From UHGV virus genome UHGV-0140522: a DNA stretch of 64,000 nucleotides. One strand, 5' to 3'. The notes under the pieces are model-generated. The model was not told where the DNA came from, ran no database searches, and worked only from the letters and a program-made list of their open reading frames with translations. The stretch is from a virus. A program made the translations under genes and the position numbers. Shown piece after piece: positions 3,665-59,888 of the stretch. Each line of letters begins with the position of its first letter. The first letter of the stretch is position 1.

Positions 3665-4024
3665 TTAACCTTTCTTCATCAGCTCACGCTTGATTTCATC
3701 GGTGCGCATCGTGACGTCGGCAGCGGTGATCGCCTCGTTCAGTTTCACGATGTCTTCGATTTCCTGCGGCGACTTCTCTGCCAGATGGAAAATGGCTGCG
3801 CGAATCACGTCAGAACGGGTGAACTTCTCGAAACGAGGGATGAACTTCATCATCTCCAGCAGATCGAAGTACTCGTCTTCCAGCGACATTGTGCGGCTCT
3901 TAATCTTCTCTTTCCCACGAGTCGGACGCCCCTGCGGTCTGACTGGCTGGCGCATTGGGGTGCTGCTTTTTACCGGTTCTTCCGGATCTTTGCGCTTTGC
4001 AAGGTCTCCCATTCTCATGGACAT
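3665..4024 (-). CDS. ParG-like partition DNA-binding protein (basic N-terminal tail plus C-terminal RHH-like fold)
   Basis: Its start overlaps the parA-like stop. The N-terminus is basic and looks disordered; the C-terminal segment (FTRSDVIRAAIFHLAEK) resembles a ribbon-helix-helix. Confidence 0.45.
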   Translation of the reverse strand: MSMRMGDLAKRKDPEEPVKSSTPMRQPVRPQGRPTRGKEKIKSRTMSLEDEYFDLLEMMKFIPRFEKFTRSDVIRAAIFHLAEKSPQEIEDIVKLNEAITAADVTMRTDEIKRELMKKG

Positions 4025-4689
4025 TATTCTTCCTCCAGACTCATGATGTAATCTACAAACTCTTCAAACTCGGCTTCTGCCTTCTTATCGCGTTCGGCGC
4101 CAGTCATTTCAAAGATAGAACGACCTGCCTCTTCCGCATCGTCATAAACGTTACGGTTGTACAGGTTAACCGGCGCAGCCTCGATGCCGAATGTCTCGAC
4201 AATTTCTTTCGCCGCCAGAATACGTGACGCCTGGGAAGGCAGTGACGGACACTGGTTCACTACCGCGCGGATCTTCACAGTCTCGTTCACGTTGCGAACG
4301 TTGTCGATAATCGGGTCGATATCACGCAGGGATTTCAAATCACGACGCTTAGGGCGAAGCGGGATAATGATGAAGTCTGCCAGCAGCATCGCTTGTCGCT
4401 GAATTTCGGAGTCAAAACCACCCGCATCAATGACGACGTAATCGTAGCGTCCCTTCAGCGATTTGATGTGTTTGACGATGTCGTCCTGAACGTATGCGAA
4501 CGGGATTAGCTCAAGATCTTCGTTCTGGCGACGGTCTTCGCACCAGCTCGTTGTGGTGCGCTGAATATCAATGTCGGTGACGTGAGTCTTCTTTTTCTTT
4601 TTAACTTTGAGGCATACCGCAATTTGCTGGGCAACGGTAGATTTGCCTGGGCCGCCTTTTGTGCCGCCAACCACAATGATCCTGGTCAT
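4024..4689 (-). CDS. parA: ParA/ParF-type (small, type Ib) partition ATPase
   Basis: Deviant Walker A (GGTKGGPGKST) in a protein of about 220 aa, the typical ParF/Soj size. It contains an unusual KKKKK tract encoded by an A-rich run. Confidence 0.8.
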   Translation of the reverse strand: MTRIIVVGGTKGGPGKSTVAQQIAVCLKVKKKKKTHVTDIDIQRTTTSWCEDRRQNEDLELIPFAYVQDDIVKHIKSLKGRYDYVVIDAGGFDSEIQRQAMLLADFIIIPLRPKRRDLKSLRDIDPIIDNVRNVNETVKIRAVVNQCPSLPSQASRILAAKEIVETFGIEAAPVNLYNRNVYDDAEEAGRSIFEMTGAERDKKAEAEFEEFVDYIMSLEEE

Positions 4690-4914
4690 TGGTGAGTTCC
4701 CTTTGCGTGAATTATTGTCGTATGAAACAACTTGTTTTCTTATATGCGATATAGCCTAAATGCCTACGGCTACGGTGTAAAGGTGAAATGATAGGCAATG
4801 CAGGGTGTTAGCTCACAGAGCAAACTAACAGTTGAATGTTTGGCCAATCAGCCTTATAGTGAATGTACGGAAAGACGCCGTACATATGACGGGTTTGACC
4901 GATAATATTATTGA

Positions 4915-5382: not shown

Positions 5383-5907
5383 GTGGCCGACCTGACCATA
5401 GAGATGTTTTCAGCACAAGCCGTATACGATTTTTCTGGCTTCGACTGCGGCGAACCATCTCTGAATGATTTCCTGCAAAACCGCCTAGTACAGCAACACA
5501 ACGGGCGTATATTACGCGGCTACCTGCTTCTTACCAAAGATCCGGTGCCGAAAGTTAAGGGTTTTTACACGCTATCCGGGAGCTGTTTTGCAAGACAGAC
5601 GCTACCATCGAACACCCAGAAGCGGAAAATCCCCTACGCAGATGCACCCAGCGTTACGCTTGGCCGCCTGGCAATAGATATCAGCCTACAGAAACAAGGC
5701 TACGGTGAGGTTCTCGTAACGCACGCGTTGAAGGTTGTTTATCAGGCTTCTCGCGCAGTAGGCATATACGCTTTGTTTGTGGATGCACTAAACCAAAGCG
5801 CAATGCAGTTCTATCAGAAGTTTGGATTCATCCCTTTGACGGGGGCGAATGCGAACTCGCTTTTCTACCCCACGAAAAGCATTGAAGAGCTGTTTGAAAC
5901 AGAGTAA
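5383..5907 (+). CDS. GNAT acetyltransferase toxin (TacT/AtaT/KacT-like)
   Basis: A 174-aa GNAT with the motif GRLAIDxxxQxQGYG. It is tightly coupled to the upstream DUF1778-type gene and is followed by a strong terminator at 5910-5937. Confidence 0.7.
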   Translation: MADLTIEMFSAQAVYDFSGFDCGEPSLNDFLQNRLVQQHNGRILRGYLLLTKDPVPKVKGFYTLSGSCFARQTLPSNTQKRKIPYADAPSVTLGRLAIDISLQKQGYGEVLVTHALKVVYQASRAVGIYALFVDALNQSAMQFYQKFGFIPLTGANANSLFYPTKSIEELFETE

Positions 5908-5909
5908 AC

Positions 5910-5937
5910 GAAGCCCCTCAATCGAGGGGCTTTTTTA
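5910..5937. terminator. bidirectional rho-independent terminator
   Basis: Stem agcccctc / gaggggct followed by TTTTTT. It sits between two convergent genes. Confidence 0.7.
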
Positions 5938-6276
5938 ATTCAAGGCTTGTCTGTCCTGCCAGTTACACAATCGCTCTCCCATCGTGTTATGGAAGAGGAT
6001 CTCACGTTCCGTCTCTTCGGTCATAAAGTCGTCGTTACTGACATAAATAGGGTTTGCTGCATCGCAGAACAGCACGCCGGAAGTCTGTGTCTTAATCACG
6101 CAGCCACTTATCATGCAGCTCGCGATGAACAGCAGAAGCATCTTTCCGCCGCACTTCATTAAGTGTCTCATTTTTGACGTCCACTGTGCTTTGAAGCCTT
6201 TTCCTGTCCTCCTGTCTGGCCTTCTCTTCGATTGCTTGCCGGGCCGCACGACCTCCCATCGTATAAGCACCGACAA
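5935..6276 (-). CDS. small lipoprotein, possibly a Cor-like superinfection-exclusion protein (the true start is probably an internal Met near 6190)
   Basis: A hydrophobic signal peptide with lipobox (LLLFIASCMISGC) is followed by a mature domain of about 60 aa. Its position just downstream of the tail-fibre genes matches where cor sits in T1, phi80 and N15-type phages. Confidence 0.45.
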   Translation of the reverse strand: MSVLIRWEVVRPGKQSKRRPDRRTGKGFKAQWTSKMRHLMKCGGKMLLLFIASCMISGCVIKTQTSGVLFCDAANPIYVSNDDFMTEETEREILFHNTMGERLCNWQDRQALN

Positions 6277-6344
6277 GCACGAAAAGAACGGCAGCCAGAG
6301 TCATCAGAGCAAACTTCAGCTTTGAAAATAGGCTGCCGGTCATA

Positions 6345-7064
6345 TCAGACCATCCCGTTCTGGTGTTTTCGCACCTGTGACCAGGCGATAAAGCCAGCCA
6401 CCACAATGGTCGCGATACCGAAGATGATCCGAACCGTATCACCACTGGTGATGTGTCCCTGCGCCTTGTCCATTGCCGCAGAGACCTGTGGCATGACGTC
6501 GGCCAGCTGTGCCAGACCAATTCCCGCCGTAACGGTCGCACCGGCAGTTTCTTTGGTTACAGGAACAGCCTTCACGGTTTTCACCGGCTTAACGACACCA
6601 GCGCGACGTAGACCTTCCTCAATAACTTCTGCCGCATACCAGGTGTTCGGCGTTTTGAGCGGGCCACGGCCATTTTCATGACGGATAATCGCCTCCACCA
6701 GCGGACGCAGAGTGTCGTAGTCGTGCAGATCGATAATCATGTCCGGGGTCACGCCAACGGCTTTAGATACCTCGTTCACGTAAGCTACGGTGTTGTTTTC
6801 ATGCGGAGGCGCCCAGCGTTCGATGACTTCGCGGATCGTATCGATGCTGGAGCCATCCTTCGCGCGGCGCTTGTCGTGGTAGGTAATGAGCGTTACTGCC
6901 AGCGCTCGAATGCCCCATACGGGATCTTTGAACGTGCAGAAACGCGGTTCGGCAGGGTTGTCAATTAACCCCTGCCACGGCGAACCTTTGTCGAGGTTGC
7001 CAGGGTTGTTATTACGAATGCCTCTCGGAGTTTTCATCCTTGATCTCCTGTTATTGCAGTCCAT
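6345..7064 (-). CDS. hypothetical protein with a C-terminal transmembrane anchor (239 aa)
   Basis: Long ORF carrying the motif RGIRNNNPGNL near the N-terminus and a C-terminal TM helix (IIFGIATIVVAGFIAW). Its start is translationally coupled to the upstream gene. Confidence 0.5.
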   Translation of the reverse strand: MDCNNRRSRMKTPRGIRNNNPGNLDKGSPWQGLIDNPAEPRFCTFKDPVWGIRALAVTLITYHDKRRAKDGSSIDTIREVIERWAPPHENNTVAYVNEVSKAVGVTPDMIIDLHDYDTLRPLVEAIIRHENGRGPLKTPNTWYAAEVIEEGLRRAGVVKPVKTVKAVPVTKETAGATVTAGIGLAQLADVMPQVSAAMDKAQGHITSGDTVRIIFGIATIVVAGFIAWSQVRKHQNGMV

Positions 7065-7386
7065 TCTTCACGCCATAAGCGGCCAGACCCAGCAGCAGCG
7101 CGGTAATCAGGAACGACGTTATCTTTGAGATAATGCCGCCAAAGAACCCGCTGGAGATGGCGTCTAGTCGATTAAGTAGTTTGTCCAGGTTGGAGTGCTG
7201 AATGCTGTGTTGCGAAGGCGTCATATCGCCAAAGTAGGTTTTGAGCTGGTCGTTGACCTCCTGGCCAATTTCCTCACGTAACTCCTTACCTAATTTGCCG
7301 ACAACTTCACGCGCAACGATAGCGGCAATGCGCTCTACCTGCTCTGGCGTTACGCCTGCCATCTCGTTCGACATTATTTCCTCCAT
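7051..7386 (-). CDS. small tail-anchored membrane protein (111 aa)
   Basis: Hydrophilic N-terminal region followed by a C-terminal TM helix (ITSFLITALLLGLAAYGV). A palindrome site lies upstream. Confidence 0.4.
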   Translation of the reverse strand: MEEIMSNEMAGVTPEQVERIAAIVAREVVGKLGKELREEIGQEVNDQLKTYFGDMTPSQHSIQHSNLDKLLNRLDAISSGFFGGIISKITSFLITALLLGLAAYGVKNGLQ

Positions 7387-7448
7387 GAATCGTCAAATCG
7401 GGATGGCTGTTTTATACCACAAATCACCCTTACATGGTAGGTAAGTAC

Positions 7449-8237
7449 TTACACACGAGCACCATAAATTGCACCGACTTTAGTCCATGTAGGCACGTTC
7501 CCCGTGACAGCCTTACCCGCCGCGCCACCTCCGTACATTGTCCCCAATCGTCCAGTGGCAGCGGCACCAGCAGCCCCCACATTACCTCCACTACCGCATG
7601 TGTATTGGACAGCAGTAGAGCCGATCAAATATTGAGCGCCAATCCCGGCAGCGGTTAGAGTGCCAGAAGTTGCCGCACGCGAATTTGAAGCTGGTGGCCT
7701 TGTAGTGTTTGCAACACCAAACGGGCGACCGCCCCCACCCATACCACCATCGGCTGAGTTACCGCCACCGCCACCGCCACCACCGGCAATAGCGCCGTTA
7801 TTGGTTATTCTTAAACGGGTCCCAATTCCGTTGTTAATAGCAGTGCCACCGGCAGCACCGCCACCTTTAACGCCACCATTACCGCCACGGCCATAGACAG
7901 TTACACCTGCGTTGATTACCAGGCTGATATAAGAGTTGGTAAGCGAACTTGGGAAATCTAAACATGGCACGCCGCTACTGTACGACACCAGATCCCCTGT
8001 AATGGTAACAACGACTGGTGTCGACCCCTGTGATTTTAAATAGTTGATCAGTGTGTCTTTGTTGTAGTTATGATTCGCACCGATGCTGTAATGAATTTCC
8101 GTAGAACGACCTGCTAACTGAGACATATTCCCAGCAGCAGACAATTGCACCGCAGTTCGAGCCGCGCTCATCCATCTCTGGCCGGTAACACTAACAGCCG
8201 AAGATCCAATCCAACCGGGAACACCGACAATTGGCAC
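7449..8237 (-). CDS. glycine-rich tail-associated protein
   Basis: A 262-aa protein with long poly-Gly and Gly-Ala runs, lying directly downstream of the tail-fibre gene. Confidence 0.4.
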   Translation of the reverse strand: MPIVGVPGWIGSSAVSVTGQRWMSAARTAVQLSAAGNMSQLAGRSTEIHYSIGANHNYNKDTLINYLKSQGSTPVVVTITGDLVSYSSGVPCLDFPSSLTNSYISLVINAGVTVYGRGGNGGVKGGGAAGGTAINNGIGTRLRITNNGAIAGGGGGGGGNSADGGMGGGGRPFGVANTTRPPASNSRAATSGTLTAAGIGAQYLIGSTAVQYTCGSGGNVGAAGAAATGRLGTMYGGGAAGKAVTGNVPTWTKVGAIYGARV

Positions 8238-8257
8238 ACCTAATCTCCTTATTCGAT

Positions 8258-8293
8258 GTGAAAATAGATGATTGGTGGGGAAGCCCCACCAAT
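8258..8293 (-). terminator. rho-independent terminator after the tail-fibre gene
   Basis: A 9-bp stem (ttggtgggg / ccccaccaa) with a 3-nt loop, followed by a U-run on the minus-strand transcript. Confidence 0.6.
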
Positions 8294-8301
8294 CGCCTTG
8301 A

Positions 8302-11300
8302 TTACATTCTCGCCTTCAGTTCACGCACTTCCTTGCGCAGCTCCTTGACGGCCTCAACCAGCATACCGATAACGCCGTTATAGTTCAGACGCAGACGAGG
8401 CTCTCCGGACTGATCGTTATGATCAACCGTTACCAGTTCAGGCTGAACATTCTGGACGTCCTGAGCGATGAGGCCGCCAGACTGCTCATACCGGTCACAG
8501 ACCTGAATCTCGTACAGAACACCTTCGATCCGATCCAGCTTGTCGAGCGCTCGTTCAATCTTGCGAATATTGCGTTTGCTACGACGGTCAGAGCGGATAT
8601 AAACGTCATTAAAGCTGCCATTACCGCCACAAACCCAAGTACCATCATTCTGGAGGTATGCGTTCGCATCCGTGCCGTTTGCGGTACGTGAGTTGTTGAT
8701 CATGTAAAAACCAAACTGACTGTTTCCCAAGCCACCCAAGAAGAATTTGCGATCCGCGTGGTCTTGTCTCAACAACGCTTGTGCAGAGCTTGTACTTACA
8801 GCGTTCCTCCCGAAGATGACGTTCTGGTTACGCATATCTATCCACGCGCCAGAACTGCTGTTGATGGAAAAACGGTTGGCGTAAACCCACGCACTTGACG
8901 TGATGTCACCCGTTACACTCAACGGCTTAAGGCTTTGCAGCGTGCTATTAACGAACCTAAAAACATGGGCGCTATTGGCGTAAACATCCAGAATGCCATC
9001 TCCGTTCTGTTTAAAGCCGGTATCATTATCGCCAAGAACGATTGAATTACCGCCTAACCCGTTTGCAACCCCCAACCCCACACTTCCGTTGATGGTTGCC
9101 CCACCACCGATATCAATTCCGTTTGATATTGAAGCACGGCCAGTGGCATTGTTGATGGTTAAAGGACGTAAGCCATTCCAACCGCCATATGCACTGCCAG
9201 AATTGGTAAGAAGAAAATAGGTATTTGCACCGTCGTTACGGATAAAGAAACCGTAGTTTCCACTTACAGCCCTGAATTGGCCTCCATCTGTTTTTGCCGA
9301 AGTGACCTGGAGTTCCCCGGATGCAGTGATTCCGCCAGAGAGTGAACCGCCAGAAATCGGCAATGCACCGACATCAGCCGCAGTAGGTTTGAGAGCAGTG
9401 TTGTAATCTCTGCGCCAGGCAGGGGCATACGCGCTACCGTGATTAATATAGGTGAACTGAGCACAGGCAATCCCACCACCGGTCGTCGTTGTAGGCGTAG
9501 TTACTCGGATGGTCATTGCGCCTTCGGTACCTAAAACCTCGATAACTGCACCAGCAAGACAGATATTGCCGACACCTGTATCAGTGATAATTTTATTGTC
9601 GGCATATGACCAGGAACCCTTCATCATCCAGTACGGCACTTCGAAAGCACCACGCTCCTTCAGCCATGCGATAAATTCAGCGGTAGTCCAATTACCAGCC
9701 CCTGTGCTGTACGACGCGCTAAATGCTTGCGCGGCCCCAACGTCTTTCGCTGTGGGTTTGTGTGCTGTGGTGTAAACCTGTGCCCAATCAGACCAGTTTG
9801 CGTCACCGGCATCACGTCGAGATCGCACATATACCGGGGCATGAGCGCCGCTTGTTCCACTCCAACCAACTAAAAGTTCGCCCTCACCAGACGCATAAGC
9901 ACCTTTCAAGTGAATAACGTTGCCGTAAGCCGTTGGATAGCTATTGTTATAGGCTTCATACATCTGAATGCCAGGCATGGCACCTTGAGTGTTCGAAGCC
10001 AGCGCATTAACTCGCCCGCGGGAAACCAACGTCGGGATAGTAATGTTGGCAGAGCCATCGAACATTACGCTGTTGATTGTCCGCGGTGTTTGCAGTTTGG
10101 TTGCAGTAGCGGCATTACCAGTGGTGTTCTGATCACCCTGAATATTCACACCAGGTAGGTTGATATCAGCCGAACCGTCAAATCTCACTCCACCGATCTG
10201 GCGTGCAGTCTGAAGTACAGTCGCAGTGCTGGCATTACCCACCAGCGAACCGGTAATAGAGCCATCCTGATCAGAAATGACGCGATGGTAGACAGTCCCT
10301 TCTACAGCGTCTTCAGGCAGCGTATCCACAACCTCAAGTACTTCCAGAGTTTCGACCACAGCACCGGCAGATTGCAGGTTGACGACCAGCTTCTGAGAGC
10401 CAGCACCGGCTTTGAGGTAAATGTCGTAATTATCGTCAGTCGTGTTAACGGTAGCTACAGTCAACACAGCCGAATCCATAGTGCGATAAGCGACCGCATT
10501 CAACGATTTCGGATCGCCTGCAGCAGTTCGCAGCACAATATCGGCCATTGCAGCAAGCCCTGGCTGCCCGGCTTCGTACCCTGCCCCGCCGATCACTTCG
10601 ATGTATACGGTGCTGGTCGACTGTGGCATACGTGCCGTGGACACTTTCACCCACTTCGGCGCATCGGTAGCCATGTCCATTTCAGCCGAAGTCCCTTTCC
10701 ATTTCACACTGGCAACACTGGCCTGGGCGTTCTGGGCGTACTCATAAGCCTTCGTTTCTGATTCTTTGGCATTCAGTTCAGAAGTTTTCGCCCCGGCAGC
10801 CGCATCGGTCGCCTCAGTTGCTTTCGTGGATGCCAGAGCAGCAGAGTCAGAGGCTTCTTTGGCTTTAGCTTCAGCCACTGCCATCGCTTCGGTCGCAGTC
10901 GTTGCGGAAGCAGCAGCCTCACCTGCGGATTTGGCAGCAGCTGTTGCAGATCCTTCAGCGGCGGTCTCAGCAGACTTCGCGTTGGTTTCAGAGGTTTTGG
11001 CGGCTGCGGCAGATGCCTCAGAAGCTGTCGCCTGTTCACTGGCAACGTTGGCCTTCTCTGTTGCAGTTGTGGCCGAATCGGCAGCCGCGGTAGCGGATTT
11101 GCTCGCAGCATCAGCACTGCCAGCTGCGGCAGCGGCACTTTCCACTGCGTGGGCTTCTGAGTTCTGGGCAGCCGCTTTTGATGCTTCGGCAGCCGTTGCG
11201 CTCTCCGATGCAGCTGTCTCGGACGCCTTTGCATTGGTCTCCGAAGTTTTTGCCTTCTGTTCGCTGGACGCAGCAGCATTTTTACTCGCTAAAGCGGCGT

Positions 11301-32912: not shown

Positions 32913-32930
32913 TAGGTAAGTACTTACCTA
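32913..32930. promoter_or_regulatory. perfect 18-bp copy of the recurrent palindrome TAGGTAAGTACTTACCTA, between the terL stop and the portal start
   Basis: Exact palindrome. It is one of about 14 related intergenic sites (see findings). Confidence 0.55.
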
Positions 32931-34184
32931 TCTAGATCCGCCAAGAATAACACGATTTTTCACCGGATACCTACGATGAACCGGATAACCCAACGCATCC
33001 GCACTGTGTTCGATGCCGCCAGTCTTATCCATATCGCGTGAGCCTGGCTTGTAGATCACCTTCTCCAGCGAGTCGATGAGGTGTTTGCACTTCGGATCGA
33101 TGTACAACCGGGTTTCGCCCGAGGCACTCATCAACATGCGGTTCACTGCGTTAACACGGTCTGCGATCGGCGGGTGCTTCTTCGGATAATCGACTCGAAG
33201 GAAACCTTTTTCCTTGAAGATATCGACGTCCGATTCACCGCGTGCGTGCTGGCGATACGCACCTGCCGGGTCAGGGAAGATAGTGACCTGAGACTTCCAG
33301 CGCCAGAAACGACGCTCCAGCTCATCACACACTTCAGCCGTGTTGGAAGAGAACAGCACAACCTCGTCCACGGCCCACAGCTCACCATTTGGCTGCGGCT
33401 GCAGGATGACCGATGACATAGGGTCGATGTTGAAGTCCTGACCAACCCAGATCGGCAGTTTCGGATTGAACTGGAGTGGCTTCACATGCACATTGCGGTC
33501 GAACGGGTAGTAAACGCGTCCGGACATGTTTTCGAAGCTGGCCAGGTATTCCTGCGCGAACGATTTAGGGTCCATATCGTTCTTCGCCGCTTCGATTTCC
33601 GCGCTCGGTACGAACGGAGAATCGGCCGTAACGAACTGCCAGCTCTTCCACTGCCCTTTGCGTTGCAAATCTATGTTCTGACCGATAGTCCACAGCTTGT
33701 GGAACTCGGAGAAGCCTTTTGGCGTACCGATGATCAGCGCACCGCCACGGGTAGAGGACAGTGTCGGACGCAGTACCTTGTACCAGGTGTCAGGCTTCAT
33801 ATCCTGAAATTCATCGAGCACCACGAAGTGCAGTGCCACACCACGAAGCGTATCGGGCTTATCCGCACCTTTCAGCGCGATTTCAGAGCCGTTCTTCAGC
33901 ACAATGGTCATCGTGGTGTCGTTTTTCTTACGAACCCATTTACGAGGCAGAACTTCCTGCAGGTCATCCCACAAGATCTGGCGAGCCATCTGGTAAGTCG
34001 GTGCGACGTACCAGACACGTTGCTTTTTCTCTTTGGCTGCCGCGCGGATGATGGTGGAGATCGACAACCGGGATTTACCCCAGCGTCGACCCGCACACAC
34101 CACTTTGAAACGATGTGGTGACTGGAAGACTTGCATCTGCCCAGAATGCAGCTGTACGAGACTCAGAGACGACGGGATGGCCAT
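32928..34184 (-). CDS. terL: terminase large subunit
   Basis: Walker A (CAGRRWGKS) and Walker B (VVLDEFQD) motifs, with a C-terminal nuclease region. Confidence 0.85.
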   Translation of the reverse strand: MAIPSSLSLVQLHSGQMQVFQSPHRFKVVCAGRRWGKSRLSISTIIRAAAKEKKQRVWYVAPTYQMARQILWDDLQEVLPRKWVRKKNDTTMTIVLKNGSEIALKGADKPDTLRGVALHFVVLDEFQDMKPDTWYKVLRPTLSSTRGGALIIGTPKGFSEFHKLWTIGQNIDLQRKGQWKSWQFVTADSPFVPSAEIEAAKNDMDPKSFAQEYLASFENMSGRVYYPFDRNVHVKPLQFNPKLPIWVGQDFNIDPMSSVILQPQPNGELWAVDEVVLFSSNTAEVCDELERRFWRWKSQVTIFPDPAGAYRQHARGESDVDIFKEKGFLRVDYPKKHPPIADRVNAVNRMLMSASGETRLYIDPKCKHLIDSLEKVIYKPGSRDMDKTGGIEHSADALGYPVHRRYPVKNRVILGGSR

Positions 34185-34186
34185 AG

Positions 34187-34828
34187 TTAGACGCTCCCAT
34201 CACTTTCATCACCAGACGCGTCAGAATCGCCCTCTGCTTCGCTCAGTGCTTCCTCTTCGAGCGACTCAAGCAGATCGTCATCAATCAGATCCGGCTCATC
34301 ATCTTCCTTACGCAGCTGCGCCACCTGGGAAGGCGTAAGTTCGCCAAATACCAGGTTCGGGATTTCGTCGTCTTCGTTCTCTGCGCGATCCATACCGAGC
34401 GCTTTCGAGGATATTTCGAAGCACTTAGCGAGTGTGCCGCTGGCACGCTGGAGACTCTTCAGGTCATCTTCGATGGTTGCCAGTGGCTTGCCGTCCTTCT
34501 TGGCTGTGGCCACCTCATGCATCACCATTCGACCGAGTGCGAACGCCCAATCGTCGTAACGAGTCCGGCGCTCTTCGATTTTCTCTGCACGCGCCTTTGC
34601 ACGCAGCTCTGCGTCGGATTTGAGCGACTCGCGCACCATCTTCCCAACGGAGTCCGCGCCTTTCTCTAATCCACGCTTTTTGAAATGTCTGGAGAGCGTT
34701 TCACGACGAATGCCGTACTCTTCCTCCAGCTTGGAGAGTGTGTATTCACCGGAAGTCCACTTTGCTTCGGCTTCTGCCCACTCAGCTGGCGTCAGGCGAG
34801 TTTTGCTCTCGTCTTTTTCTACAGTCAT
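34187..34828 (-). CDS. terminase small subunit (putative)
   Basis: The N-terminal region looks like an HTH, the C-terminus is acidic, and the gene sits directly upstream of terL with a 3-bp gap. Confidence 0.5.
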   Translation of the reverse strand: MTVEKDESKTRLTPAEWAEAEAKWTSGEYTLSKLEEEYGIRRETLSRHFKKRGLEKGADSVGKMVRESLKSDAELRAKARAEKIEERRTRYDDWAFALGRMVMHEVATAKKDGKPLATIEDDLKSLQRASGTLAKCFEISSKALGMDRAENEDDEIPNLVFGELTPSQVAQLRKEDDEPDLIDDDLLESLEEEALSEAEGDSDASGDESDGSV

Positions 34829-34940
34829 AGATCCCTCTAAAACACTCAGAGCGCATCCTTGCGCTCCTAAACAACTTGTTTAATTCTGTGCCTAACCAAT
34901 TTGTTTTCTGGGTGTTTAAAACCGGGCTGGGGAGTATTCA

Positions 34941-35023
34941 GAGCCTGCTTCCGTATATATTTAATAAGTCACTTAGTATTTATATATACGGAAGCAGGCT
35001 CTCAAACTGGCTCCCAGACCGAC
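34941..35023. repeat. hairpin element copy B (perfect 20-bp stem), immediately 3' of the operon's last gene
   Basis: gagcctgcttccgtatatat - ttaataagtcacttagtatt - tatatatacggaagcaggctc, followed by the tail tcaaactggctcccagacc that is shared with copy C. Confidence 0.6.
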
Positions 35024-35290
35024 TTACATCACCAGTAATTTGGCTCTGGCACGACCTAACGTGGTCAGTCCCAGCGTGCGACGGTGGTAGCCGGAATCAC
35101 CGCGCTGGCGGCACATTCCTTTCTCCACCAGCCCCTTTTTCACCAGTGCGCGGATAGAGAACTGCATACTCTGTTTGGTCGTTTTGTACGGCAGCACTTC
35201 AAGCAGCTCGTCCAGATCGAGCAGATGCCCACGCTCATGGCCTAAATTGATGGTTTTGATGATGTCTTTTTGTTTGTCGGTCAACGTCAT
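35024..35290 (-). CDS. winged-helix transcriptional regulator (88 aa); last gene of the ParB–ATPase–GNAT operon
   Basis: HTH-like segment (…QSMQFSIRALVKKGLVEK…). It is followed by hairpin element copy B. Confidence 0.45.
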   Translation of the reverse strand: MTLTDKQKDIIKTINLGHERGHLLDLDELLEVLPYKTTKQSMQFSIRALVKKGLVEKGMCRQRGDSGYHRRTLGLTTLGRARAKLLVM

Positions 35291-35299
35291 GGCAAATCC

Positions 35300-36199
35300 T
35301 TATGCCGGTAATGCAATTTCAAGAGGTTTATTCAAAGGCTGTTTGTCGAATGCCAGCAGTGGCAACGTGTCCGGCAGCTGACGACCAAAGTCCGGGTTTC
35401 GGTACACGCCATACAGCGGAGAGGTGAAGCTCAGGTTGTGAATGTCCTTGAGCAGCTTCACGATGCTGGCCTCGTCCACCAGGCTGTCGGCAATGTCCTG
35501 AATCGTCGTGCCACGATTACGCCCGGCTTTGGCCAGGGAACTGTTCTTGTGGTAGTCAGCGACCAAATCACGCAGCGCACGACGACGGCGAGACTCACTC
35601 ATGGCGAACAGCTCTTTGACGATCGCTTCGTTGTCACCAGGGTCGGAACGGAAATGACGCTGGAAGACGCGCAACGCACTCTCGTAGCTCTTCGGACGCT
35701 CCGGACGGATGAACTGGAACCCTGCTTTCATGGCGAACGGGTTGTATTTGCTCATCGACGACTGGATCTCGATGATTGGCCGGTCGTGCATCCTGCTAAC
35801 CAGGTTAATCATTCGATAGGAGACGCCGACGCCGCGGTACTGAGTGTCCACAACGGAACGGCTGATCACTGCAAAGTTGTTGTTCACGTACCGGCCCCAA
35901 TACTGGTTGGCCACGGTGGTATTGGTGGTTGGCTTCAGCTTAGGAAACATGCGATGGCGAGGCGCCAGCAGCAGTTTCGGGTAAGCCATAACCACGACGC
36001 CCACCAGCCGGTCGTCCAGTTCGCAGCGATAATACGTTGGCGCGAACGGCTTACCATCCGTCTTGTAGTGCAGCGACTTCAGCGCGTGCCAGTCTTCAAC
36101 CGTGCCTTTGGTAACGGTCATACGCTCCAGAAAGTCCAGATGACGCGGGAACTCTTCCGGGCGGTAGCGTTTGATGATGATGTCTGTCATGTCGATCAC
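35300..36199 (-). CDS. GNAT-fold acetyltransferase-like protein (299 aa)
   Basis: GNAT motif A-like sequence VVDTQYRGVGVSYRMINL. Its stop overlaps the upstream gene. Confidence 0.45.
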   Translation of the reverse strand: MIDMTDIIIKRYRPEEFPRHLDFLERMTVTKGTVEDWHALKSLHYKTDGKPFAPTYYRCELDDRLVGVVVMAYPKLLLAPRHRMFPKLKPTTNTTVANQYWGRYVNNNFAVISRSVVDTQYRGVGVSYRMINLVSRMHDRPIIEIQSSMSKYNPFAMKAGFQFIRPERPKSYESALRVFQRHFRSDPGDNEAIVKELFAMSESRRRRALRDLVADYHKNSSLAKAGRNRGTTIQDIADSLVDEASIVKLLKDIHNLSFTSPLYGVYRNPDFGRQLPDTLPLLAFDKQPLNKPLEIALPA

Positions 36200-36450
36200 C
36201 TGCGCTCGATATTGGCATTGATGAAGTCCAGGCGAAGCGATTCCATCGCCCCAACCATGACGTATGGACGCCCACCGTTATGCCAGCAATCCAGAACACT
36301 GCCGTCGTTGTTAATCATCAGCAGCGCCAGGCTCTGGCTTTTGCCTTCTCTGGCGTACTGGAGTGCTTCTTCCAGCAGGCGGATGACTTCAAGGTTGTTG
36401 TTATCTGCCTCTTTCGATGGTTTCAGCTCTACGATCTTCAAATCAGGCAT
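36196..36450 (-). CDS. hypothetical protein (84 aa) within the operon
   Basis: Start and stop overlap both neighbours (36199/36196 and 36450/36443). Confidence 0.4.
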   Translation of the reverse strand: MPDLKIVELKPSKEADNNNLEVIRLLEEALQYAREGKSQSLALLMINNDGSVLDCWHNGGRPYVMVGAMESLRLDFINANIERR

Positions 36451-37081
36451 ATTCCACCTTCACGCGTTCTTTGTAGTGCTTGGTAATCTGCATATCCGGG
36501 CGCAGCGCGTTCTTCAGGTCTTCGTGGGTCGTCGCCACCATTACCGTCGCACCAACCTTTCGAGCGGCACGCTGGAGGTTCGACGCCACAACCTGAGCGG
36601 TTACACGGTCGAGAACAGCGCCAAATTCGTCGGCTGCCCAGACTTTGGCGCCTGACTCGATCAGCTTGGCAATCTTGAGGCGGTATTTCTGGCCGTCAGA
36701 CATCTCGGATGGCTTGCGCACAAAGAGATAGGCGTCATTCAATCCGGCCATAGACAGCAGCCCCAGCGCTTCGCTGGTGGTTTTGCCCAGCTGGTCGATG
36801 ACGTTAACCTCATTGTCGAAGGTAAAGTCATCGATGGAGGCTACAGAAAGCCCTTCATCCTTCATCTGGCGTTGCAGTTCGCGCAGCACAACGGATTTGC
36901 CGGAACCGGATTGGCCGGTGATGTACACCACATCGCCCTGCTTCACTTCCAGCTCCAGATTGTCGTAAAGCGTCCACTCTTTTTCGTCCAGGCCAAGACC
37001 GAACGATTCGGCAATCTCCAGCGTGCGCGTGGTTTTGTTCACGCGGGTCTGAAACGATACATTGATGGTGTATTTGCTCAC
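36443..37081 (-). CDS. soluble ABC-type ATPase (nucleotide-binding domain only)
   Basis: Walker A (GQSGSGKS), signature-like SDGQKYRL, Walker B (VWAADEFGAVLD) and H-loop (ATTHEDL) are all present. There is no transmembrane partner nearby. Confidence 0.65.
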   Translation of the reverse strand: MSKYTINVSFQTRVNKTTRTLEIAESFGLGLDEKEWTLYDNLELEVKQGDVVYITGQSGSGKSVVLRELQRQMKDEGLSVASIDDFTFDNEVNVIDQLGKTTSEALGLLSMAGLNDAYLFVRKPSEMSDGQKYRLKIAKLIESGAKVWAADEFGAVLDRVTAQVVASNLQRAARKVGATVMVATTHEDLKNALRPDMQITKHYKERVKVEYA

Positions 37082-37779
37082 GCAGCCAGCTCCCCTGAAG
37101 AAACTTTCTCCGCATATGCCACGAAAGCGTCTACCCCGCTCTCTCCCGTGATTTCTTCCATGTGGGCAAGCAAATCCCCAACCACAATGGCAGAGCCAGC
37201 AGGGAGCGTTTTAAAGCCCAATACGTCGATGACGCGGACTTCTTCAGAGGCTACTTCGCGACTGATCTCGGTGTGCTCTTCTTTCTGGCGTTCCGTCTCT
37301 TCGCCCAGATCGAGCACCAGAGAGCCGGTTTCCATCTCTTCGGTCATGCTGCCGACAAGCACGTTCAGCTCGCGCTCTTCAAAACCGAAGACCTCGACGT
37401 CGCCCAGCACCAGGGATTCCAGTTCCTGCTGCAATTTGATGGCGTCGTAGTCAATACTGGCCAGGCGGTTGTCTTCCAGACGCTTCGCCTTCACTTCTTC
37501 TTCGCTCAGATCGTCGCGAACGATGACCGGCACACGCTCCAGACCAGCCAGAAGTGCCGCCTCGCGACGACCGTGGCCAGTAATGATGACGTCGTGCTTG
37601 TCGACCGTGATCGGCTGGTCAAAACCGCGCTTTTTGATGGCGGCCGCCAGGTCGCGGATCTGCTGTTCGTCATGTTTTTTGGCGTTCATCTCATACGGGA
37701 TGAGTTCTGCCGGGTTTCGATAGACGATTTCAAAGTTTTTGGTCATTACATACGCTCCTTGTAGTAGTCGACCAGCCAC
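37078..37779 (-). CDS. ParB/Srx-like N-terminal domain protein
   Basis: ITGHGRREAALLAG matches the ParB GxRRxxAA arginine patch. Confidence 0.7.
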   Translation of the reverse strand: MAGRLLQGAYVMTKNFEIVYRNPAELIPYEMNAKKHDEQQIRDLAAAIKKRGFDQPITVDKHDVIITGHGRREAALLAGLERVPVIVRDDLSEEEVKAKRLEDNRLASIDYDAIKLQQELESLVLGDVEVFGFEERELNVLVGSMTEEMETGSLVLDLGEETERQKEEHTEISREVASEEVRVIDVLGFKTLPAGSAIVVGDLLAHMEEITGESGVDAFVAYAEKVSSGELAA

Positions 37780-38444
37780 ACCAGGGCTTCCCCGGCGTTC
37801 TCCATTTCGTTACCGGTATTGATTCCCTGCTCTTTGATGATGGTTTTGATGGTGTCGGCGACGCGATCTGACGCATCAAACGTCACTTTGAAGCGCATCG
37901 TCTGGTGTTCAGCGCCGACTCGCTCGGTTTTCTCGCGTTTGTCCTCATCGACCGGCTCGTCATCGCCACGGGAGAGCGCTTCCAGCGCTTCAAGATCGAT
38001 AACGGACGCTTTGGCGAGTGTTGCCGCCATTTCGTCGTCATACGGGGCGATATCGGACAACCGGTAGTCGATTTCAGACTGGATTTCTTCGATTAAGCGC
38101 TGCAAAGCGACCTGATCGTCTTCGCCGTAGCGTTCGTTATCGACGAGAGACATCTGTTTGGCCACCAGGTCGTTAATTTTGCCCACGGAGATGACGGGAA
38201 CCGTTGAAATGCCCTGCTCCATCGCGGCACGCCAGCGGTGTTCGCCACCGAGGATCTCAAAAATGCCCCCGTCCAGCTCCCGCGCCAGAATTGGCTTAAA
38301 AAAGCCCAATTTTTCGATCGAGCCTTTCAGTTTTTCGAAGTTTTGCGCCCCAACGGAGTTGGTATTCCAGGGATTCGGACGCAGGTTCGCGACTTCCACC
38401 TGCAGAATCGTAATTTTCACATCCATAATTCTGATACAATCCAT
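37746..38444 (-). CDS. ParB/Srx-like N-terminal domain protein
   Basis: ILGGEHRWRAAMEQG is a close match to ParB box II (GERRWRAA). Confidence 0.75.
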   Translation of the reverse strand: MDCIRIMDVKITILQVEVANLRPNPWNTNSVGAQNFEKLKGSIEKLGFFKPILARELDGGIFEILGGEHRWRAAMEQGISTVPVISVGKINDLVAKQMSLVDNERYGEDDQVALQRLIEEIQSEIDYRLSDIAPYDDEMAATLAKASVIDLEALEALSRGDDEPVDEDKREKTERVGAEHQTMRFKVTFDASDRVADTIKTIIKEQGINTGNEMENAGEALVWLVDYYKERM

Positions 38445-38508
38445 TGTATAAGTACTTACTTACTATAATAGCCAATTACCATACAAAAGGCACGAAGGAA
38501 AGAGGTTT

Positions 38509-40068
38509 ATGACAGTTCGGATTGTATCGAATGCAGTCAATGCGCTGATTTCTGGCGCTGATGACAACGTGAAACGGCTCGTTCAGGAGATGTTGAGCTA
38601 TGAAGTGGAGGCTGGTGACTGGAAAGGAACCAGCACGATGTTCAACTGGAGCAAAAACGCGTTCCCGGCTGGGTTTGCGAAGCCAGTTGCAGCCAACCTT
38701 CTGAAAGCTGGCATCAAATGCGTGCATGTGCGCAAGGAAAAAGCCCCCGCGCTTGGCAAGCCGAACCCGGTAGTTAACCCATTCCCGTATAACCCGGACT
38801 ATGCGTATCAGGATCAGACTGTGGAAACACTGGTGCGAGAAGGGATGATGATTGCCCAGATTGCGACGGGTGGCGGTAAATCGAACGTAGCGTGTAAGGC
38901 AGCTGCTCGCATTGGTCGTATGACGCTGTTTTTAACCACGCGCTCGGTTCTGATGTTCCAGATGGCAGAGAACTTCCAGAAATCCATCGACTACCGCGCG
39001 GAGAATGGCGAGCCGTGGCTGAAAGGTCAGAAAGTTGGGGTGATTGGATCTGGTGAGTTCCAGGTCTCGCGCCATATCAACGTTGCCACGGTGCAGACCC
39101 TGGCCAGTTTTCTCGAAGAGCCACCGCGCGACGCATCACCGGAGAAAAAACAGTACCACCTGAAGCGCCGGGAACTGGTTAAGCGCTTTCTGTCCAGCGT
39201 TTCTCTGCTGATTCTGGAAGAGGCACACGAATCATCTGGTTCAAACTTCTACGATATCGCCCGGTTGTGCATCAATGCCGATTACCGTCTGGCGCTGACA
39301 GCTACGCCGTTCATGAAGGACTCGACCGAAGCAAATATGCGTCTCATGGCCGTTGCCGGTCGCATTGAGATAAAGGTAACGGAGAAATATTTGATCGATC
39401 GAGGTATTTTAGCGAAACCATACTTTCTATATCATAAAATCGCGTACACTCCAGACGAGGTGCGGATTAGGGCCGAACTTGCTTCGAAACACCTGAACTT
39501 TCGGGTTGGAATGAGTACGGCTTACCAGAAAGCCTATCAGTTAGGCATCGTTTACAATCTGGGCCGCAACGAGGCTATTGTGCGCGAAGCGTTAATGTAC
39601 AAAAGTCACGGTCTGAACTGTATGACGCTGGTTCGTTTGAAGCGTCATGGTCAGATTTTGATGGAAATGATGAAGGAAAGCGGCCTGAAGGTCGATTTCA
39701 TCTACGGAGAATCAAACCAGACTACCCGACAAGCAAAGCTCAACAGTCTGGCGGCAGGCAAGATAGATGTTCTGATTGGTTCAACCATTCTGGATGTTGG
39801 TGTCGACGTTCCAAGCGTAGGGGCGGTGATTCTGGGTGGTGGCGGCAAAGCCGAAGTTGAGATGCGCCAACGTGTTGGTCGCGGTCTTCGAGCCAAAAAG
39901 AATCAGGCTAACGTGTGCTTTATTACCGACTTTATCGACGTGAGCAACAAATATCTCATGTCGCATTCATATGAGCGGAAGCACATTATCGATACGACGC
40001 CTGGGTTTGCCGAGGGCGTTTTGCCGGTGGGTAGCACATTCGATTTCACTGTTTTGAATAGAGAGTAA
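38509..40068 (+). CDS. SF2 DEAH-box helicase
   Basis: Motif I (ATGGGKSNVA), motif II (LILEEAHES), motif III (TATP) and motif VI (QRVGRGLR). Confidence 0.8.
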   Translation: MTVRIVSNAVNALISGADDNVKRLVQEMLSYEVEAGDWKGTSTMFNWSKNAFPAGFAKPVAANLLKAGIKCVHVRKEKAPALGKPNPVVNPFPYNPDYAYQDQTVETLVREGMMIAQIATGGGKSNVACKAAARIGRMTLFLTTRSVLMFQMAENFQKSIDYRAENGEPWLKGQKVGVIGSGEFQVSRHINVATVQTLASFLEEPPRDASPEKKQYHLKRRELVKRFLSSVSLLILEEAHESSGSNFYDIARLCINADYRLALTATPFMKDSTEANMRLMAVAGRIEIKVTEKYLIDRGILAKPYFLYHKIAYTPDEVRIRAELASKHLNFRVGMSTAYQKAYQLGIVYNLGRNEAIVREALMYKSHGLNCMTLVRLKRHGQILMEMMKESGLKVDFIYGESNQTTRQAKLNSLAAGKIDVLIGSTILDVGVDVPSVGAVILGGGGKAEVEMRQRVGRGLRAKKNQANVCFITDFIDVSNKYLMSHSYERKHIIDTTPGFAEGVLPVGSTFDFTVLNRE

Positions 40069-59686: not shown

Positions 59687-59802
59687 GATAGTTTTCCTTA
59701 CTGTGGTTCATAAAATCGATTCTAGAGCGTCTGGAGAGGGGTTCCAGTGGGTTCTGGAGGTGTAAAACGGTCTGGGAGTTGTTTGGAAATCACGTCTTAA
59801 AA

Positions 59803-59888
59803 AGCCTGCGTCTGTATATATTAATAATTAGTACTTAGTTATTTATATATACGGAAGCAGGTTCTCAAACTAACTCCCAGACTGGTGT
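59803..59888. repeat. hairpin element copy C, immediately 3' of the dam gene
   Basis: cctgcgtctgtatatat - loop taataattagtacttagttattt - atatatacggaagcagg, followed by the tail tcaaactaactcccagact. Confidence 0.55.

Follow-up and report, generated by a model that had tools for sequence, protein, structure and literature searches.

A split ABC ATPase-GNAT enzyme with paired ParB-like proteins in SSU5-type phage-plasmids, a candidate system for acylating phage DNA before packaging

Sequence matches to known phages and PLSDB plasmids identify the virus genome UHGV-0140522, of which we analysed a stretch of 64,000 nucleotides (nt; hereafter the window), as an SSU5-type phage-plasmid. Upstream of its terminase genes lies a block of genes for two ParB-like proteins, an ABC ATPase, a GNAT-fold protein and two small proteins, p84 and p88. 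Comparison with fused relatives identifies the ATPase and the GNAT protein as the two halves of a single enzyme. We propose, with about even confidence, that the module built around this enzyme is a late-expressed, ATP-dependent, ParB-assisted acyltransferase, which acts on phage DNA at the packaging stage. A role in DNA modification had been suggested by the original prediction, made from the letters of the window, and it is the reading best supported here. The six minus-strand genes that it placed at 35024-38508 were all found as open reading frames (ORFs):

37746-38444, minus strand, ParB1, 232 amino acids (aa)
37078-37746, minus strand, ParB2, 222 aa from an ATG at 37746 (longest ORF 37078-37779, 233 aa from a GTG)
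36443-37081, minus strand, ABC ATPase, 212 aa
36196-36450, minus strand, p84, 84 aa
35300-36199, minus strand, GNAT-fold protein, 299 aa (the SSU5 start lies 9 nt later, giving 296 aa)
35024-35290, minus strand, p88, 88 aa

The real start of ParB2 is probably the ATG at 37746, as annotated in Salmonella phage SSU5 and matched by phrog_930. The junctions had been described as overlapping or nearly so; in order, they are overlaps of 1, 4, 8 and 4 nt, and then a 9-nt gap. In the linear SSU5 record, the same six genes are the final ones, SSU5_125 to SSU5_130.

The ATPase passes the Pfam model ABC_tran (4e-13, 50.6 bits against a cutoff of 25). As predicted, all motifs of a soluble ABC nucleotide-binding domain can be read in its translation, namely Walker A (GQSGSGKS), the signature (SDGQKYR), Walker B (VWAADE) and the H-loop (TTHEDL), and no membrane permease or substrate-binding subunit was found in the operon or at any relative's locus examined. 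The 299-aa protein, earlier called GNAT-like, has a GNAT domain at about residues 20-165, followed by a helical basic C-terminal domain. Its fold was resolved only by structure prediction: single-sequence and profile searches against the PDB gave no match, and the Pfam model Acetyltransf_10 scored 13.5 bits against a cutoff of 23.6. The protein is basic (isoelectric point, pI, of 9.7) and has a putative GNAT coenzyme A (CoA) loop, R122-G-V-G125-V-S, with R and G invariant, to be compared with R/Q-x-x-G-x-G/A of the superfamily. A relative, gp86 of Gordonia phage Jace, passes Acetyltransf_1.

A profile of the window GNAT protein (family A1) retrieved 1016 relatives from 1.84 billion representative proteins. 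Thirty-five were strong matches and represent the split SSU5 type, while many further listed relatives are 440-560 aa long and match the profile in their C-terminal half. When ten relatives were checked by Pfam, eight had an N-terminal ABC_tran domain directly ahead of the GNAT-like region, and the other two a family-B DNA polymerase (PolB) domain before the ABC-GNAT pair. One of the eight additionally contains an intein in the ABC domain, another a TFIIB repeat. In the six checked fusions of ordinary size, ABC_tran is N-terminal and the GNAT-like match C-terminal. The consensus of 36 fusions (family A2) reproduces the ABC motifs of the window (GDIVYITGxSGSGKS, ELSDGQKYR), and the fusion protein P0186, as a tblastn query, matched both SSU5-type genes as two colinear pieces. 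Because the fusions carry homologues of both halves in the same N-to-C order, the motifs agree, and one fusion matches both genes, the ABC ATPase and the GNAT protein are, on homology, the N- and C-terminal halves of one enzyme. Labels already present in JGI and some phage annotations for the 299-aa family read 'ABC-type ATPase with/fused to a predicted acetyltransferase domain'. The first IMG/VR scan, with the A1 profile, returned near-identical relatives only, and the second used the fusion alignment. In the profile scan of genome contigs, the lower half of the matches consisted of generic ABC ATPases and was ignored. The PolB-ABC-GNAT proteins are single ORFs of 1260-1310 aa (loci L125, L128 with ORF 5580-9362, and L165; proteins P0189, P0174, P0168 and P0154), and the intein is of the LAGLIDADG type.

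A system of this kind, an ABC ATPase with a GNAT, was reportedly predicted by Iyer, Zhang, Burroughs and Aravind in NAR in 2013. In a survey of jumbo phages (PMC7824862), which cites Iyer et al. 2013, the coupling of a GNAT with an ABC ATPase is listed as a system predicted to acylate DNA nucleobases and so far uncharacterised, with Tenacibaculum phage pT24 as an example. The claim that no system of such composition had been described therefore fell, as the pairing is already named in this survey. Since searches with the fusion family hit the gene of pT24 (tblastn 7e-10; A2 profile 2e-41), the window enzyme can be assigned by similarity to the predicted DNA-acylation system, and it is a widespread and strongly conserved member. 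It has the same two homologous domains as the COG2401-type 'ABC-type ATPase fused to a predicted acetyltransferase domain', but is split in two genes with a cargo slot between them, and two ParB paralogues and a small basic protein are encoded alongside. As published, the system has been predicted by computation only. Our literature search found no experimental study of it, and nothing useful on the COG2401-type family or on SSU5 with ParB.

GNAT-fold enzymes are able to modify DNA. The precedent is Mom of phage Mu, a DNA adenine carbamoylmethylase that uses glycyl-tRNA (PMC13219725), and it shows that neither donor nor acceptor can be read from the GNAT fold. Mom has no specific relationship to the window protein, ranking 14th among generic GNATs. 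It acts alone, without ATPase or ParB, and carries its own helix-turn-helix (HTH)-like insertion, whereas the window protein has the helical C-terminal domain. ATP-dependent acetylation of a nucleic-acid base is also carried out by the RNA cytidine acetyltransferases TmcA/NAT10, in which an NTPase domain is coupled to a GNAT. Here the likeness would be one of analogy, as the TmcA/NAT10 ATPase is helicase-like and not ABC-type, the substrate is RNA, and only GNAT-fold homology to the window protein was detected.

The two ParB-like proteins pass the Pfam model ParB_N (PF02195; cutoff 26.3 bits), ParB1 at 9e-14 and 51.7 bits, ParB2 at 1e-8 and 35.5 bits, and match phrog_723 (3e-86) and phrog_930 (4e-115), respectively. 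PDB alignments place both on the CTP-binding N-domain found in Spo0J, ParB and Noc. The ParB/Srx arginine-patch motifs recognized earlier in both proteins hold up: in ParB1 (GGEHRWRAA), GEHRWRAA aligns on GERRYRAA of 1vz0, the GERRxRAA box of Spo0J, and so does GHGRREAA of ParB2, in a degenerate form with Glu and the first Arg replaced. Both proteins are acidic (pI 4.6 for ParB1, 4.55 for ParB2), and Pfam detected no HTH or C-terminal ParB domain in either. ParB2 matches the ParB domain of ParB-DNA methyltransferase fusions (phrog_498 8e-33; PADLOC MTase_II 7e-18) and, by these matches, can be placed in the subfamily of ParBs known from fusions to DNA methyltransferases; ParB1 matches phrog_498 at 1e-18. 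In these prophage fusions (PADLOC model PDLC03229), it is the N-terminal ParB region that both window proteins match, but the window ParBs are separate proteins without a methyltransferase domain. ParB-DNA methyltransferase fusions typically adjoin packaging genes.

Similar ParB partners are known from other DNA-modifying enzymes. Phage thymine dioxygenases depend for their activation on ParB-like proteins that lack a DNA-binding domain (5mYOX/ParB; PMC13229309), and ParB-fold domains, which bind CTP, ATP or GTP, are fused to acetyltransferases in some bacteria, one such fusion binding GTP (PMC12704722). The acidic, HTH-less ParBs of the window fit the arrangement of 5mYOX/ParB and DpdA/DpdB, in which a ParB-fold protein lacking a DNA-binding domain is encoded beside a DNA-modifying enzyme that needs it for activation. 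The partner here differs, being an ABC-GNAT and not a TET/JBP dioxygenase or a transglycosylase, and there are two paralogous ParBs instead of one. They form separate orthologue lineages, and phmmer recovered ParB1 orthologues in all distant relatives.

The module is common among enterobacterial elements. The plasmid of Citrobacter sp. RHBSTW-00524 is 100% identical to the region, and SSU5 about 98%. Homologous stretches were found in 782 PLSDB plasmids, of which 740 cover at least 80% of the query, with the module present. The hosts of SSU5-type phage-plasmids, represented by hundreds of sequenced plasmids, are Klebsiella, Escherichia, Enterobacter, Salmonella and Yersinia. The module is flanked by the following genes:

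38509-40068, plus strand, SF2 (UvsW/XPB-like) helicase with DEAD/ResIII/Helicase_C matches, divergent from the module
34187-34828, minus strand, small-terminase-like (TerS-like) DNA-binding protein, directly downstream of the module
32928-34184, minus strand, large terminase (TerL), a conserved neighbour of the module

The terminase pair is recognized by matches to phrog_867, Terminase_6N and phrog_2. In SSU5, gene SSU5_001 encodes a 213-aa DNA-binding (TerS-like) protein, and the large terminase gene is next.

Relatives at 40-45% identity keep the order of the divergent helicase, ParB1, ParB2, ABC, small gene(s), GNAT, a small gene, TerS-like, TerL and portal. They comprise prophages integrated in Hyphomonas and in a metagenome-assembled bacterium, a phage region on an Ectothiorhodospira contig, Pseudomonas phage nickie, Rhizobium phage RHEph10 and Xanthomonas phage JGB6. 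In the SSU5 lineage, the linkage to ParB and terminase extends over gamma- and alphaproteobacteria, and by synteny the helicase adjoins the module in every relative examined. Separate orthologues of ParB1, ParB2, the ABC ATPase, the GNAT protein and, more weakly, p88 were recovered in distant relatives with phmmer. Five core genes occur together in 76 of the 80 close IMG/VR relatives and are under strong purifying selection, with ratios of nonsynonymous to synonymous substitution rates (dN/dS) of 0.01-0.2; the exception is p84, which is missing in many close relatives. The ABC and GNAT proteins equal TerL in conservation (80-91% aa identity, dN/dS 0.01-0.09; 0.02-0.09 for the ATPase), and the ParBs diverge faster (63-77% aa). 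The original prediction regarded the operon as a six-gene unit. Because the content of the slot between ABC and GNAT varies while 76 of 80 relatives keep the other five genes, the conserved core is ParB1, ParB2, ABC ATPase, GNAT-fold protein and p88, and the p84 position is a slot that can be swapped or left empty. On the divergent helicase arm, distant relatives carry a gene of the dCMP/cytidine deaminase family (L001 4695-5183, L002 3108-3569, L003 4689-5174), joined in L002 by an anaerobic ribonucleotide reductase pair.

Outside this lineage, ABC-GNAT fusions occur in genomes of Bathyarchaeia, Nitrososphaeria, Planctomycetota and Alcaligenaceae as well as on numerous small viral contigs; the viruses that carry them include archaeal, planctomycete and actinobacterial ones. 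At archaeal-type viral loci, TerL is at position -1 of the fusion gene in 45 of 80 cases, often at a contig end, and one prophage also has the fusion gene directly after TerL. Planctomycetota prophage loci have a ParB next to ABC/GNAT and TerL. In Gordonia phage Mariokart (L257 1-4175), gp1 (ParB-like), gp2 (ABC-GNAT), gp3 (a formyltransferase-domain protein) and gp4 (TerL) all overlap. The combination of ParB, ABC-GNAT and terminase thus recurs in phages of three phyla, Proteobacteria, Actinobacteria and Planctomycetota. Jace (L258 4971-7736) encodes a ParB (gp85), an ABC-GNAT (gp86), an aspartate decarboxylase (PanD) and a family-III CoA-transferase; PanD and the CoA-transferase would provide a plausible route to a beta-alanyl-type CoA donor. 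In another type of prophage (L099 2113-6447; L135 8016-10400), the ABC-GNAT gene lies between an integrase and Amidoligase_2, accompanied by a GGACT/AIG2-like gamma-glutamyl cyclotransferase and a SocA/Panacea-domain gene, with the terminase a few genes on. A GT4 glycosyltransferase stands beside the ABC-GNAT of yet another prophage. By analogy, these neighbours resemble the tailoring enzymes of nucleobase hypermodification pathways, and those of Jace and Mariokart suggest lineage-specific acyl donors or further tailoring. The PolB fusions and jumbo phage pT24 have no terminase nearby.

We favour DNA as the target because of these acyl-donor and tailoring neighbours, the subfamily of ParB2, the PolB fusions and the prediction in the literature; a focus on DNA is supported by the PolB-ABC-GNAT fusions together with the adjacency to TerL. 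The mark would be a nucleobase acylation, made after replication of the phage DNA, either shortly ahead of packaging or in the course of it. ATP binding would make the ABC subunit dimerise on DNA, and this would drive or gate the access of the basic GNAT subunit to the base. With an acyl-CoA (or charged tRNA) as donor, the GNAT subunit could then load an acyl (or aminoacyl) group onto an exocyclic amine. The ParB paralogues, probably as a heterodimer, may serve as an NTP-dependent activator or loader, like the ParB partners of thymine dioxygenases and DpdA. For p88 we envisage DNA targeting or autoregulation, whereas p84 would be unrelated cargo. The likely benefit would be virion DNA shielded from host nucleases. 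As for timing, the module genes form the head of a minus-strand array of about 32 kb with the terminase, portal, capsid and tail genes, and a promoter scan of 34100-38800 found no sigma-70-like promoter. Because of this position and the missing promoter, expression is likely late and phage-controlled.

Several points weigh against this proposal. The case for DNA as the acceptor is indirect, and proteins, small molecules and RNA are much commoner substrates of GNATs than DNA is. The literature search turned up no report of modified bases or modified DNA in SSU5-type phages or virions. The late timing relies solely on gene position and the absent sigma-70 promoter. The catalytic Glu of the GERR box is missing in ParB2, there is no ParB near the archaeal-type fusions, so that ParB is not obligatory for the enzyme, and genes for donor synthesis are absent from the SSU5-type module. 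Finally, the genes are persistently found beside terminase and are often translationally coupled to it, which could reflect a role in packaging or on virion proteins instead.

This last point leads to the first alternative, an accessory of packaging or virion maturation, in which the ParB pair and the ABC-GNAT act on the packaging machinery or on substrate ends and not on bases, for example by acylating TerS, TerL, portal or capsid, or by marking or holding the pac/cos region by the hairpin described below. We regard it as possible, though improbable. It would account for the location of the module in the SSU5 lineage, where TerS and TerL follow directly, for the overlap with the terminase operon in Mariokart and for the fusion genes directly after TerL at 45 of 80 viral loci and in one prophage. 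A large hairpin, inside which the SSU5 record is linearised, also lies between the module and TerS:

34937-35005, long perfect hairpin, 24-nt arms and 21-nt loop, between the module and the TerS-like gene

This hairpin has a minimum free energy of -53 kcal/mol and an RNA z-score of -7.75. It belongs to the three-copy element that had been noticed 3' of the operon; the other copies are at 59802-59864 and, in degenerate form, at 1844-1891. An intrinsic terminator was considered and rejected, as no T-run is present after it. Since the GenBank records of SSU5 and Cyrano were both cut inside the loop of the first copy, the hairpin could mark the point where packaging starts or the genome ends, and not a terminator. 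A packaging accessory does not, however, explain why PanD, CoA-transferase, formyltransferase, amidoligase and glycosyltransferase genes adjoin the enzyme, which points to small-molecule or hypermodification chemistry. Nor does it explain the PolB fusions and pT24, where the terminase is not near, or the kinship of ParB2 to the ParB domains of DNA methyltransferases, and we know of no GNAT in the known packaging systems. The original prediction held that homologues turning out to be terminase accessories would speak against it. A terminase link is indeed seen, but acyl-donor and tailoring enzymes adjoin as well, and a modification coupled to packaging fits this combination better than a purely mechanical packaging accessory.

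It is rather unlikely, in our judgement, that the module encodes a host-takeover or anti-defence enzyme with a target other than DNA, be it a host protein, tRNA or rRNA (compare TmcA, TacT and Rac) or a nucleotide signal, with the ParB/Srx proteins as NTPases or nucleotide-depleting partners. In PADLOC-DB 2.0, the proteins matched only the ParB region of the MTase_II models and generic P-loop domains, with nothing for the GNAT protein or p84, so a defence system in the PADLOC sense, also raised at the outset, found no matching model, and neither did an anti-defence role. The core evolves slowly and is fixed in position in temperate, plasmid-borne and integrated phages of different classes and in phage isolates of about 110 kb, unlike typical accessory genes, and the PolB fusion and the linkage to ParB, helicase and terminase are all DNA-centred. 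A tRNA-directed role, prompted by tRNA genes near the module in nickie, was kept only as part of this alternative; the window has no credible tRNA there.

A role in plasmid or prophage partition, with an ABC-type motor replacing ParA, could draw on the genuine ParB_N domains, the plasmid-prophage nature of the element and the loading of the ABC-type SMC complex by ParB in bacteria, but it is very unlikely, as both ParBs are acidic, HTH-less and below the cutoff of the partition model TIGR00180 (39.3 and 46.8 bits against 58.45), a separate ParA-type gene exists at 4024-4689, and the module is tied to GNAT and terminase rather than to replication or partition genes and is also present in prophages integrated in chromosomes and in phage isolates of ~110 kb, nickie among them. 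The original prediction was thus borne out in denying a partition locus and in stating that the operon partner of the ParB pair, an ABC nucleotide-binding domain, is no ParA. With ParABS, the window ParBs share the N-terminal CTPase-fold domain, but the operon has no ParA, and no HTH or C-terminal dimerisation domain was detected. No parS was identified, although no search was aimed at it. The ParA-like gene, which had likewise been foreseen, is on the minus strand about 33 kb from the module. The 119-aa gene downstream of it (3665-4024), its putative ParG-like partner, has no Pfam match. A tRNA-Lys(ttt) called by ARAGORN at 4621-4701 on the plus strand overlaps the start of the ParA-like gene and may be spurious.

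Returning to DNA acylation, we suggest, more tentatively than for the window alone, that SSU5-type elements and unrelated phages of Actinobacteria, Planctomycetota and archaea install an undescribed acyl or aminoacyl mark on DNA bases, by an ATP-driven ABC-GNAT with cofactors of the ParB-CTPase fold. The acyl group would depend on the lineage, for example beta-alanyl-type near PanD and the CoA-transferase. If true, phages would have a third means of marking DNA by a GNAT-type enzyme, one that differs from Mom and is the first to involve an ABC ATPase, and the ParB CTPase fold would have one more function besides chromosome segregation. Chemically modified DNA would then be packaged by a very common family of phage-plasmids of clinical enterobacteria, with a bearing on restriction evasion, horizontal transfer and the sequencing-based detection of modified bases. 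The minimal set is now defined as five genes, or one fused gene and one ParB in the Gordonia phages, and SSU5, nickie, Mariokart and Jace are tractable models. Candidate donors are acetyl-CoA or, in Jace, a beta-alanyl-type CoA thioester.

The small basic protein p88 (pI 10.1) matches phrog_900 (5e-49) and has orthologues at 1e-5 to 1e-20 in L001-L003, nickie and JGB6, while phmmer found none in RHEph10. It gave no Pfam or NCBIfam match, no significant PDB match, and a weak PADLOC match (E 2.8e-4) to the C-terminal region of a CARF protein. This weak match was all that spoke for the winged HTH named in the original prediction; p88 is possibly a small DNA-binding (winged-helix-like) subunit or a regulator.

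Between the ABC and GNAT genes lies a hot spot for insertions, with swappable cargo. Among the 80 close IMG/VR relatives, it holds p84 in 39, a 183-aa protein with a HEALH motif and no Pfam match in 21, and nothing in 20 (36196-36450 in the window; L052, L063, L075, L082 and others provide further examples). RHEph10 has a Tad2-like anti-Thoeris gene and a 66-aa gene there (L170 8405-8907), and the Ectothiorhodospira phage region Phage_gp49_66, a 96-aa gene and a RyR-domain gene (L002 8961-9999). p84 is therefore a passenger and interchangeable cargo. It has no match in Pfam, NCBIfam or PADLOC and was never recovered in distant relatives with phmmer; hhalign comparisons with the 96-aa and 111-aa genes that occupy its position in distant relatives gave E values of 0.009 and 0.18. 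Its AlphaFold2 model is weak (pLDDT 68), and Foldseek found no fold match; MADS-box-like topologies among the Foldseek matches were non-significant and disregarded. Homologues at 51-62% identity are located in the head-tail region of unrelated Klebsiella and Enterobacter siphovirus prophages, and p84 is thus a mobile small gene, possibly with a link to the virion. In these prophages (L172-L176, gene at 7001-7261), the homologue lies downstream of the major capsid gene, with a DnaT_2-like gene on one side and tail-terminator genes on the other.

A palindrome recurs in the window, and one copy lies in the intergenic region between the operon and the divergent SF2 helicase, the existence of which was confirmed:

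38445-38508, divergent intergenic region, 64 bp between the ParB1 and SF2 helicase genes
7442, 12420, 19355, 29476, 32917, 38449, 44772, 50893, 54252, 59442 and 59828, 10-bp core of the palindrome, TAAGTACTTA
7440, 12418, 29474, 32915, 44770, 50891, 54250, 59440 and 60498, 14-mer of the palindrome

The copy announced for the 5' end of the operon is there as the 10-bp core, exact at 38449-38458 and 5 nt upstream of the ParB1 ATG, but the 14-mer has three mismatches at this place. The full form is GGTAAGTACTTACC. In the window, the core occurs 12 times against 0.68 expected, and the 14-mer nine times against 0.07. All copies checked against the ORF list lie in short intergenic spacers, mostly within the late structural array, as for example between the TerL stop and the portal start. 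The palindrome could be the operator of a late regulator, or else a small RNA stem-loop. Of the hairpin copies, the first has TAAGTCACTTA in its loop, and the second a core with one mismatch to TAAGTACTTA, at 59828-59837.

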